Source of the DNA: Escherichia coli
GTDB taxonomy: Bacteria > Pseudomonadota > Gammaproteobacteria > Enterobacterales > Enterobacteriaceae
Strand: one strand, 5' to 3'
Length of the DNA: 64,000 bases
NCBI RefSeq assembly: GCF_003334255.1
Contig: NZ_QOWU01000005.1
A program made the translations under genes and the position numbers. The notes beneath the pieces are model-generated. The model ran no database searches. It saw only the letters and a program-made list of their open reading frames with translations, and was not told where the DNA came from. Positions 58,903 to 60,066 of this stretch are shown here, one piece after another (within the stretch, counting starts at the first letter, position 1; every line of letters starts with the position of its first letter).

Positions 58903-60066
58903 TTATCTGGAATCGATTTGGCTGTTCTGCCTGGTTGCCACCAAATCATGGTACGCCTGCTCAATCATTTCATTCAGCAGTTTTTTTGGGAGGACACCAC
59001 GACTTCGGGCAATACTTTCAAGCTGTTTGTGGATTTTTCCGGACAGTTTCAGAGGGACGGAACCATCAGCACGTTCATCACGCCTTTTTTGTTGCTCCCG
59101 GGCACTTTTCAGCTCATCAAGAAGAATCGCTTTATGCTGAATCCTGGGGGCCTGGAAGGAGACCTGCGTAAACTTCGCTCTGTTCCGTCTGGGATTACTT
59201 TCCAGTAAAAACTGTACCTGTTGCTCATTCCAGCCCTCCCAGTTATCAAACGTGGCGCAGGCAAACCAGTATTTCTGCTCCGGGGTAAGGGGATTCAGCG
59301 GGGTTCCCACACACCGGATCTGCATGGCGTTCCATAACCAGTCACACTGTTCACTGTCCCTGCTGTCCACCCACGAAAAGGGGGAGGGGTAATCATTGTT
59401 TATGCTGGCCCATTCAGAGAATACTGAGTTGATAATCGTCCTCGTAGCCTCTGGTCCGGATTTCAGCAGGTAACTGGAGCAGAACCATATAATTTCACGG
59501 TAGATTTTATCCGGATGCACGGTGCGCATCGGCTTTTCTCTGGGACCGGCAATCTTCGGTTGCGATGGAAACCCCGTGGCAAACCGCAGATGTTCCGGGG
59601 GCATTCCTGAACGTTTTTCAGGAATGGGTGTGAGTCCTGCGTTTCTGGTCTTTTCCGCTTGTCCGGTATTGCCTCCGGCCGGAGTGTTGTCGGGAGTATC
59701 TTCCGGAGGCGAGGTGTTTTCATTAGTTGGGGGAACAACAGCAGAACTGTCCATCTCCGGAATGGGTTGAGGGGCATAATCACTGTGGTAGCCAGGGGAA
59801 AGCGTTAAGTCCCGAAGGGTGACATCAGGTTCCGGGCAGTGAGTGCCACCGGGAGTGAACGGGAGTTGTTGCTTTTGGGAGAAAAATGTATTGTGAATGC
59901 GGGTATACAGCTGGAACAGAAAAAAATAAGATGCCCGTGGTTCTTTTTTTAACCACTGTGTATATTCCTCTATGGCACCGAGCTGTTGTTTGTGCCGTTT
60001 TACAGCATCGATATACGGACAGCTGGTGCAGATATCATCCAGTTCCTTTCCCACAATACACCTCAC
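58903..60066 (-). CDS. hypothetical protein with central Pro/Thr-rich low-complexity linker
   Basis: 387-aa ORF; 45 bp upstream of the YeeP-like gene on the same strand; no recognisable motif. Confidence 0.5.
   Translation of the reverse strand: MRCIVGKELDDICTSCPYIDAVKRHKQQLGAIEEYTQWLKKEPRASYFFLFQLYTRIHNTFFSQKQQLPFTPGGTHCPEPDVTLRDLTLSPGYHSDYAPQPIPEMDSSAVVPPTNENTSPPEDTPDNTPAGGNTGQAEKTRNAGLTPIPEKRSGMPPEHLRFATGFPSQPKIAGPREKPMRTVHPDKIYREIIWFCSSYLLKSGPEATRTIINSVFSEWASINNDYPSPFSWVDSRDSEQCDWLWNAMQIRCVGTPLNPLTPEQKYWFACATFDNWEGWNEQQVQFLLESNPRRNRAKFTQVSFQAPRIQHKAILLDELKSAREQQKRRDERADGSVPLKLSGKIHKQLESIARSRGVLPKKLLNEMIEQAYHDLVATRQNSQIDSR

Follow-up and report, generated by a model that had tools for sequence, protein, structure and literature searches.

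Ribbon-helix-helix (RHH) proteins act as dimers that place a two-stranded β-ribbon in the major groove of DNA. Described examples with which the gene considered here can be compared are CopG of pMV158, an RHH_1-type repressor consisting of a single 45-amino-acid (aa) domain (PDB 1b01/2cpg), the Escherichia coli macrodomain Ter protein MatP, which combines a helical bundle, an RHH, and a coiled coil, and relaxosome or partition adaptors such as F TraM, ParG/ParR, and ParD-type proteins. In pathogenic E. coli, adhesins such as Ag43, along with defence systems and toxin-antitoxin pairs, are encoded on CP4-44/CP4-57-type islands, and, to our knowledge, the control of excision and gene expression in these islands is poorly understood. 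Here, we analyzed a 64,000-nucleotide (nt) stretch of E. coli DNA (contig NZ_QOWU01000005.1, assembly GCF_003334255.1; hereafter the window) containing a CP4-44-type island that adjoins tmaR/yeeA/sbmC, and, within it, an open reading frame (ORF) on the minus strand, termed ORF-X. We tentatively propose that ORF-X encodes a non-enzymatic, multi-domain DNA-binding backbone protein, which may act as a regulator or nucleoprotein adaptor of CP4-44/CP4-57-type islands in the Enterobacterales.

In the ORF listing of the window, ORF-X spans 58903–60066 and encodes 387 aa from a GTG at 60066, the length given in a preliminary description of this DNA. While the ORF itself is real, translation likely begins at a second GTG (60054, preceded by GGTGAGG) to give 383 aa, since the RefSeq call by the Prokaryotic Genome Annotation Pipeline (PGAP) in E. 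coli ATCC 11775 (WP_000514103.1, "hypothetical protein") and the ATG positions of divergent homologues (MEKEPDD..., MISALDD...) agree on this codon. The peptides quoted in that description were all found in the translation (CTSCPYIDAVKRH, the Pro/Thr-rich stretch, and the Trp-rich C-terminal half). At ≥90% nucleotide identity, ORF-X occurs at 2556 places in 2097 of 5426 complete E. coli genomes (~39%), always annotated as "hypothetical", yet it has had no name, domain assignment, or literature. Given that the reading frame is intact in ~1960 of these genomes, that homologues of 20–32% identity exist in other genera, and that the pairwise ratio of nonsynonymous to synonymous substitution rates (dN/dS) among E. 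coli variants is 0.37–0.75, ORF-X is a real gene and not a chance ORF.

Searches of Pfam, NCBIfam, PADLOC, and PDB sequences with ORF-X returned no match, in keeping with the earlier failure to assign it to a family, and PHROGs gave a single weak match to a family of unknown function. A word-index homologue search recovered E. coli relatives only. With an exhaustive hidden Markov model (HMM) scan of 1.84 billion cluster representatives, 60 clusters were recovered, with full-length members of 288–388 aa sharing ~20–32% identity; every member with an identifiable organism belonged to the Enterobacterales. A scan of 100,044 species genomes, using nine closer family sequences as the query, gave eight loci in the same order (Yersinia, Serratia (two loci), Kluyvera, Hafnia, Brenneria, Enterobacter, and Photorhabdus), to which a separately located Pectobacterium member and AFDB50 entries from Pluralibacter, Paramixta, and Salmonella, all named "Uncharacterized", can be added. 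Compact members of the family (288–309 aa) lack the disordered linker described below and carry an extra N-terminal region, and they occur in similar islands (locus L030, 239–2143; L031, 6001–6867). In the literature on YeeP/YfjP/YkfA, the GTPases encoded downstream, we found no functional study of the upstream gene. The family is thus previously undescribed, being missing from all libraries and literature searched, and is confined to integrative islands in the genomes of E. coli and related bacteria.

Between genera, ORF-X is 24–33% identical, versus 44–59% for the GTPase and 67–78% for the AlpA-family protein encoded nearby, and such faster evolution is typical of element-specific regulators. 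The retention of the domain architecture and Trp residues across genera at 20–30% identity argues that the protein is functional. The family alignment displays an N-terminal WLKxxPRAxxFxxF helix, a variable linker (missing from the compact members), and a C-terminal strand-helix-helix. Eight Trp residues lie between residues 190 and 275 of ORF-X, with W215, W228, and W239 being invariant in all members of the family, which shares the motifs PxPFSW, EEQCxWxW, and AxFDxWxGW (core signature: W215 ... PxPFSW228 ... EEQCxW239xW241 ... AxFD270xW272xGW). The core is followed by a basic helix with the family consensus HKxxLLxELxKAWxQKxxR. An N-terminal Cys-containing segment, highlighted previously, is present in ORF-X, but C9 and C12 are seen in the E. 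coli branch alone and do not define the family. A zinc-binding role was rejected because the CxxC motif is not conserved.

Using AlphaFold with 37 diverse sequences, we obtained a model with a predicted local distance difference test score (pLDDT) of 76.7 and a predicted template modelling score of 0.66; a model based on five close E. coli sequences (pLDDT 36) was discarded. The retained model comprises helices at residues 13–62, disorder at residues 74–147 (pLDDT < 50), a confident patch at residues ~150–160, helices at residues 181–296 (mostly pLDDT > 90), a helix at residues 303–329, and, at the C-terminus, an extended segment followed by two helices (pLDDT 92–94). The model bears out the three-part layout already noted from the sequence, which runs from an N-terminal segment through a low-complexity linker to a Trp-rich C-terminal domain.

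The C-terminus of ORF-X contains a module of ~45 residues in strand-helix-turn-helix order, and comparison of the C-terminal family profile with CopG using hhalign gave a probability of 81% (pairwise E-value 1.2e-5), with the strand, helix A, turn, and helix B in register, while the reversed CopG control scored 0.2%. A PDB search with a profile of the C-terminal 50–60 residues gave six weak matches, including CopG (E-value 0.17) and MatP (E-value 0.29), and member-by-member Pfam scans gave weak matches mostly to RHH families (RepB-RCR_reg, RHH_1, RHH_7, CopG_antitoxin, MatP_C, and RHH_4), the best match having an E-value of 1.6e-3 and none falling at or below 0.001. RHH proteins have alternating hydrophobic residues in the strand and a Gly-x-Ser/Thr/Asn turn ahead of helix B; over these elements, the family consensus ("...ikLt...ygvSpnelL") is represented in E. 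coli by PLKLS and RG-V-L/P-P, with the Gly kept and the Ser not. For the structure, the values given for RHH proteins were 5.6 (TacA2), 5.2 (MazE4), 5.0 (TraM), 4.8 (ParD), and 4.6 (FitA). Judged from sequence profiles and the model together, a C-terminal RHH in ORF-X is probable, and it is most likely through this motif that the protein would bind DNA.

Like CopG, the C-terminal 45 residues of ORF-X align through the strand, helix A, Gly turn, and helix B, which would imply the same action, a dimeric β-ribbon in the major groove. Unlike CopG, however, the motif in ORF-X ends a 383-aa protein in which ~330 further residues form unrelated helical domains and a disordered linker, and the sequence match does not reach database significance; DNA binding by ORF-X is our inference. 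The order of a helical bundle followed by an RHH is also seen in MatP, with weak matches only (Foldseek E-value 6.5 over 129 columns, the profile match given above, and a Pfam MatP_C match with an E-value of 0.08 in one member). All of these are non-significant, the MatP core has no sequence signature in common with the ORF-X family, and MatP, a chromosomal housekeeping protein, has neither a disordered linker nor an N-terminal hairpin. In F TraM, ParG/ParR, and ParD-type proteins, the RHH is usually N-terminal rather than C-terminal as in ORF-X, there is no sequence relationship, and ORF-X comes without a cognate relaxase or ParA-type NTPase.

The genes around ORF-X in the window all lie on the minus strand in the order alpA, a 200-aa gene, IS21 relics, ORF-X, a YeeP-type GTPase, a CrfC-like dynamin, an RdcB/YjcZ-like protein, and a patatin, and the ATCC 11775 series then continues with DUF932, antirestriction, YeeS, YeeT, CbeA, and CbtA genes. 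At all E. coli loci, ORF-X has the alpA and 200-aa genes as neighbours, and the same holds for 13 of the 14 long-type lineages of other genera; at the P0047 locus, alpA is kept nearby and the 200-aa gene was not called. In other genera, both genes lie on the opposite strand from ORF-X, divergently upstream, and the compact member P0064 likewise has a divergent alpA upstream. The 200-aa protein is another unannotated backbone product (28–64% identity in other genera) and displayed no Pfam or NCBIfam match.

In the ancestral layout, ORF-X is the first gene of the rightward arm, transcribed divergently from alpA (an excisionase/regulator), and could serve as the island's own regulator or nucleoprotein adaptor at this alpA switch region. 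Its binding sites would differ from lineage to lineage and lie upstream of its own gene, with the helical bundle serving oligomerisation or the binding of a partner or signal. That the compact members keep the position opposite alpA, though lacking the GTPase, counts in favour of such a backbone or switch role. Upstream of the Yersinia homologue, four tandem 11–12-bp repeats (GTTTTTACTGTG; L016, 5806–5851) lie ~100–140 nt from the gene, and other lineages display different phased A/T-rich repeats. These lineage-specific repeats are candidate binding sites.

The gene downstream of ORF-X encodes the YeeP/YfjP/YkfA-type GTPase. A GTPase gene on the same strand lies ~90–170 nt downstream of ORF-X in all 14 non-E. 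coli long-type lineages with enough flanking sequence (by tblastn of neighbours and gene tables), so the pairing is ancestral, and the adjacency stressed in the preliminary description is conserved beyond E. coli. As an exclusive partnership, though, the pairing does not hold, since the GTPase is common without ORF-X and compact members lack the GTPase (two loci, one followed directly by DUF932 and one at the island edge). The GTPase and its leader occur at 9767 places in 4540 E. coli genomes, nearly four to one over ORF-X, and at least ~2400 E. coli genomes carry the GTPase without ORF-X. Three sampled GTPase loci contained restriction-modification (R-M) or other cargo and no ORF-X family member within 5 kb, and K-12 has an intact yfjP, although the 3.2 kb shown ahead of it contains no ORF-X. 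Where cargo has inserted between ORF-X and the GTPase, the promoter-like box described below stays with the GTPase (the ESY001 locus and L009, with TetR/EamA cargo); in strain LS4, an iron-uptake cluster is inserted, the box is missing, and the GTPase is degraded. Given the GTPase's own promoter box and hairpin, the cargo insertions, the GTPase excess, and the GTPase-less compact members, the linkage is an ancestral synteny of the island backbone and not an obligate pair.

Since the GTPase starts at ATG 58819 (PGAP; tblastn alignments begin at residue 1), the gap between the two genes is 83 nt and not 45 bp as reported earlier; a GTG at 58858, which would leave a 44-nt gap, sits within a hairpin. 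Co-transcription of the two genes had been considered likely, but the sequence of the gap argues against simple co-transcription, as it holds a -35/-10-like box that is conserved across genera and, after it, a hairpin with a T-tract. The hairpin sits between the box and the GTPase start codon, ~20 nt before the latter. It was found in nine lineages, with the structure kept and the stem sequence different (folding free energies of -12 to -22 kcal/mol; T-rich tails in eight of the nine). RNAalifold on a MAFFT alignment of the GTPase leader did not recover the hairpin, as the stems differ and were misaligned, and it was seen when the lineages were folded separately. An imperfect palindrome (TTCAgacAGATAtTATtTccgTGAA, 58877–58901) also lies within the box region. 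The leader (58836–58913; 3110–3212 of L032 for K-12 yfjP) is conserved across genera, with an almost invariant spacer, TTCAGAYAGATA.

In K-12, yfjP is preceded by TTGAAA-15-TATCAT and an equivalent hairpin right after the rnlAB cargo, with no ORF-X there. Genomic systematic evolution of ligands by exponential enrichment listed RpoD promoters of exactly this form at ykfA and yfjP, and RNA polymerase binding has been reported at the ykfA and yfjP spacers (PMC3946193). The GTPase leader, in which a conserved-spacer promoter is soon followed by an intrinsic terminator, resembles in its layout the AlpA-dependent antitermination promoters of P. aeruginosa (PMC7969949). The island encodes an AlpA-family protein, and the two may be linked. 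The invariant box is more likely a target of the conserved AlpA or RNA polymerase than of the divergent ORF-X RHH. The GTPase has its own promoter-like box and a terminator-like leader hairpin, with ORF-X neither an obligate partner nor necessarily co-transcribed.

The interval just upstream of the GTPase box (between window positions 58903 and 58913) is a hotspot of cargo insertion. The cargo differs between strains and can be an iron ABC/TonB-receptor cluster, GNAT/DUF2971 genes, TetR/EamA, type I R-M systems, or rnlAB with abpA (L002, 8159–14434; L003, 8162–11738; L009, 10120–13967; L024–L026; L032, 1–3100).

What is new here is that the family is defined, its domains are mapped, including one end that probably binds DNA, and the gene is placed within the island; together these make the gene testable. 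ORF-X stands opposite alpA, where it heads the rightward arm, and forms one flank of a hotspot for R-M systems, rnlAB, iron-uptake genes, and other cargo. If our proposal is true, a dedicated, fast-evolving regulator and an AlpA-type promoter-plus-terminator leader would offer handles on island control.

Several observations weigh against ORF-X being a DNA-binding regulator. No single RHH match reached database-wide significance, Arc was not matched by hhalign (0.6%), and the monomer model assigns no β-strand. The Foldseek comparison suggested in the preliminary description returned family members alone from AFDB50 and nothing from PDB, and hence no relative outside the family. No operator common to the lineages was found upstream of ORF-X by k-mers or CTACG repeats; the search brought up phased A/T tracts and repeats peculiar to single lineages, and nothing else. 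The alpA block of E. coli is inverted, with IS21 relics between it and ORF-X, which suggests an insertion sequence (IS)-associated inversion in this lineage, and a switch function in E. coli would need another mode of action or may be in decay. Finally, the dN/dS of 0.37–0.75 indicates only weak purifying selection among the E. coli variants (0.55–0.73 for the linker between divergent variants), and the conserved core is also low in dS, so that part of the similarity in E. coli reflects recent recombination.

These last points bear on whether ORF-X is a decaying or functionless island ORF that merely hitch-hikes. The weak selection, a core dS low enough to suggest recent recombination rather than constraint, the many truncated forms in databases, and the IS relics upstream would all fit; yet such decay is very improbable given the frame kept intact in so many complete genomes, the homologues of 20–30% identity in around ten genera that keep the invariant Trp residues and the same architecture, and a family alignment that supports a confident, compact fold. 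A DNA-processing accessory factor, rather than a transcription regulator, is an unlikely alternative, in which the RHH would bind a hypothetical origin between alpA and ORF-X, be it an oriT, a nick site of the gpII-like YagK/YfjJ protein, or a centromere-like site, and the downstream GTPase, DUF932, antirestriction, RadC, and CbeA/CbtA genes would form a plasmid-like leading region. The island does encode YagK_YfjJ/REP_ORF2-G2P proteins, the content of the rightward arm is leading-region-like (DUF932, Antirestrict, and RadC), and the phased 11–12-bp direct repeats in Yersinia could be read in this way, but no nick-site or iteron motif conserved across the lineages was found, and no relaxase or type IV secretion system gene was seen in the loci examined.

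The remaining alternatives turn on the GTPase. ORF-X could be the adaptor of a GTPase-based conflict or defence module, its Trp-rich bundle being a bacterial death-fold-like domain that couples the GTPase switch to DNA or an effector. Bacterial death-like domains coupled to septin/GIMAP-clade GTPase switches have been described (PMC8195603), the GTPase weakly matches LeoBC/LeoA (PADLOC) and AIG1/Toc-type GTPases, and the two genes are adjacent in all long-type lineages. We consider this distinctly unlikely, as Foldseek, Pfam (even at E-values ≤ 10), PADLOC, and NCBIfam gave no death-fold match, the GTPase is so often found without ORF-X and the compact members without the GTPase, and the pair belongs to the backbone, not the cargo. 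Death-fold domains (pyrin/CARD/DD/DED) are six-helix antiparallel Greek-key bundles of ~90 residues; compared to these and to bacterial death-like domains, a match to the ORF-X core was unconfirmed by Foldseek and absent from profiles, the first two helices are ~20 residues long, and the family resides in island backbones, not in variable defence cargo. An extension of this idea, in which a death-fold-like Trp core, the RHH, and the septin/AIG-like YeeP GTPase form a mobile-element sensor-switch module that guards or gates the cargo/defence hotspot, is quite improbable. Hardly credible is an antitoxin-like neutraliser of the GTPase, which would make ORF-X an RHH antitoxin upstream of its toxin. 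Although ORF-X is indeed an upstream gene with a probable RHH and a disordered region that evolves faster than the gene downstream, the gap of 83–170 nt with its own promoter box and terminator departs from bicistronic coupling, cargo inserts between the genes, the GTPase (4540 genomes) far outnumbers ORF-X (2097) and often occurs without it, and K-12 retains an intact yfjP with ORF-X not nearby. We retain, tentatively, the regulator or nucleoprotein adaptor role; the coordinates of the features discussed are collected in Table 1.

Table 1. Features of the ORF-X locus (window coordinates; residue numbers refer to the 383-aa protein).
Feature	Position	Strand	Details
alpA-family gene	63144..63350	minus	68 aa; Phage_AlpA/excisionase-like; divergent from ORF-X in other genera, co-oriented in E. 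coli
200-aa unannotated gene	62448..63050	minus	Same conserved block as alpA, which it follows
Terminator-like hairpin (60113-60129) and T-tract	60093..60129	minus	~40 nt upstream of ORF-X start
ORF-X coding sequence	58903..60054	minus	383 aa plus stop; PGAP WP_000514103.1; longest ORF begins 12 nt further upstream, at GTG 60066
N-terminal helical hairpin, residues 13-62	59869..60018	minus	WLKxxPRAxxFxxF; W34 and R40 nearly invariant; pLDDT 75-95
Linker, residues 63-147	59614..59868	minus	Pro/Thr/Gly/Glu/Asp-rich; predicted disordered; length and sequence vary; missing from compact members
Patch PPEHLRFATGF, residues 152-162	59569..59601	minus	A159 and G161 invariant in closer set; high-confidence model
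Trp-rich all-helical core, residues 176-300	59155..59529	minus	~six helices; pLDDT mostly > 90
Long basic helix HKxxLLDELKxAxEQKxRR, residues 303-329	59068..59148	minus	From alignment and model
RHH-like motif, residues 331-375	58930..59064	minus	VPLKLS strand, helix GKIHKQLESIARSRG, turn, helix KKLLNEMIEQAYHDL
Promoter-like box ATTCCA-16 nt-TATTAT	58886..58913	minus	Spacer TTTCAGACAGATA nearly invariant; overlaps last codons and stop of ORF-X
GC-rich hairpin (58849-58874) and T-tract (58836-58848)	58836..58874	minus	Free energy -19.5 kcal/mol, z -5.0; terminator/attenuator-like
YeeP/YfjP/YkfA-type GTPase gene	57947..58819	minus	290 aa; MMR_HSR1 G domain

Divergent E. coli variants (L004, L005, and L009) retain the terminator-like hairpin upstream of ORF-X, albeit with base changes, and an Rfam search from 52000 to 64000 gave no match. 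The region between ORF-X and the 200-aa gene (60067–62447) holds relics of an IS21 transposase and IstB, plus ~1 kb without ORFs (also seen in L001, 14449–14882).

Downstream of the GTPase lie three overlapping genes on the minus strand (53364–57729), encoding the CrfC-like dynamin (798 aa; NCBIfam CrfC, E-value 1e-166 but below the cutoff), the RdcB/YjcZ-like protein (301 aa), and the patatin-like phospholipase (356 aa). PADLOC gave weak matches to individual proteins of this trio only (LeoBC and phospholipase effector models), and the three could form a membrane-targeting defence or stress module. In P0030, the closest relative not of the E. coli type, the leftward arm (L010–L012, 210–2814) carries a reverse transcriptase and a PRTase-CE/wHTH gene pair, which are probably retron-like or other defence cargo.
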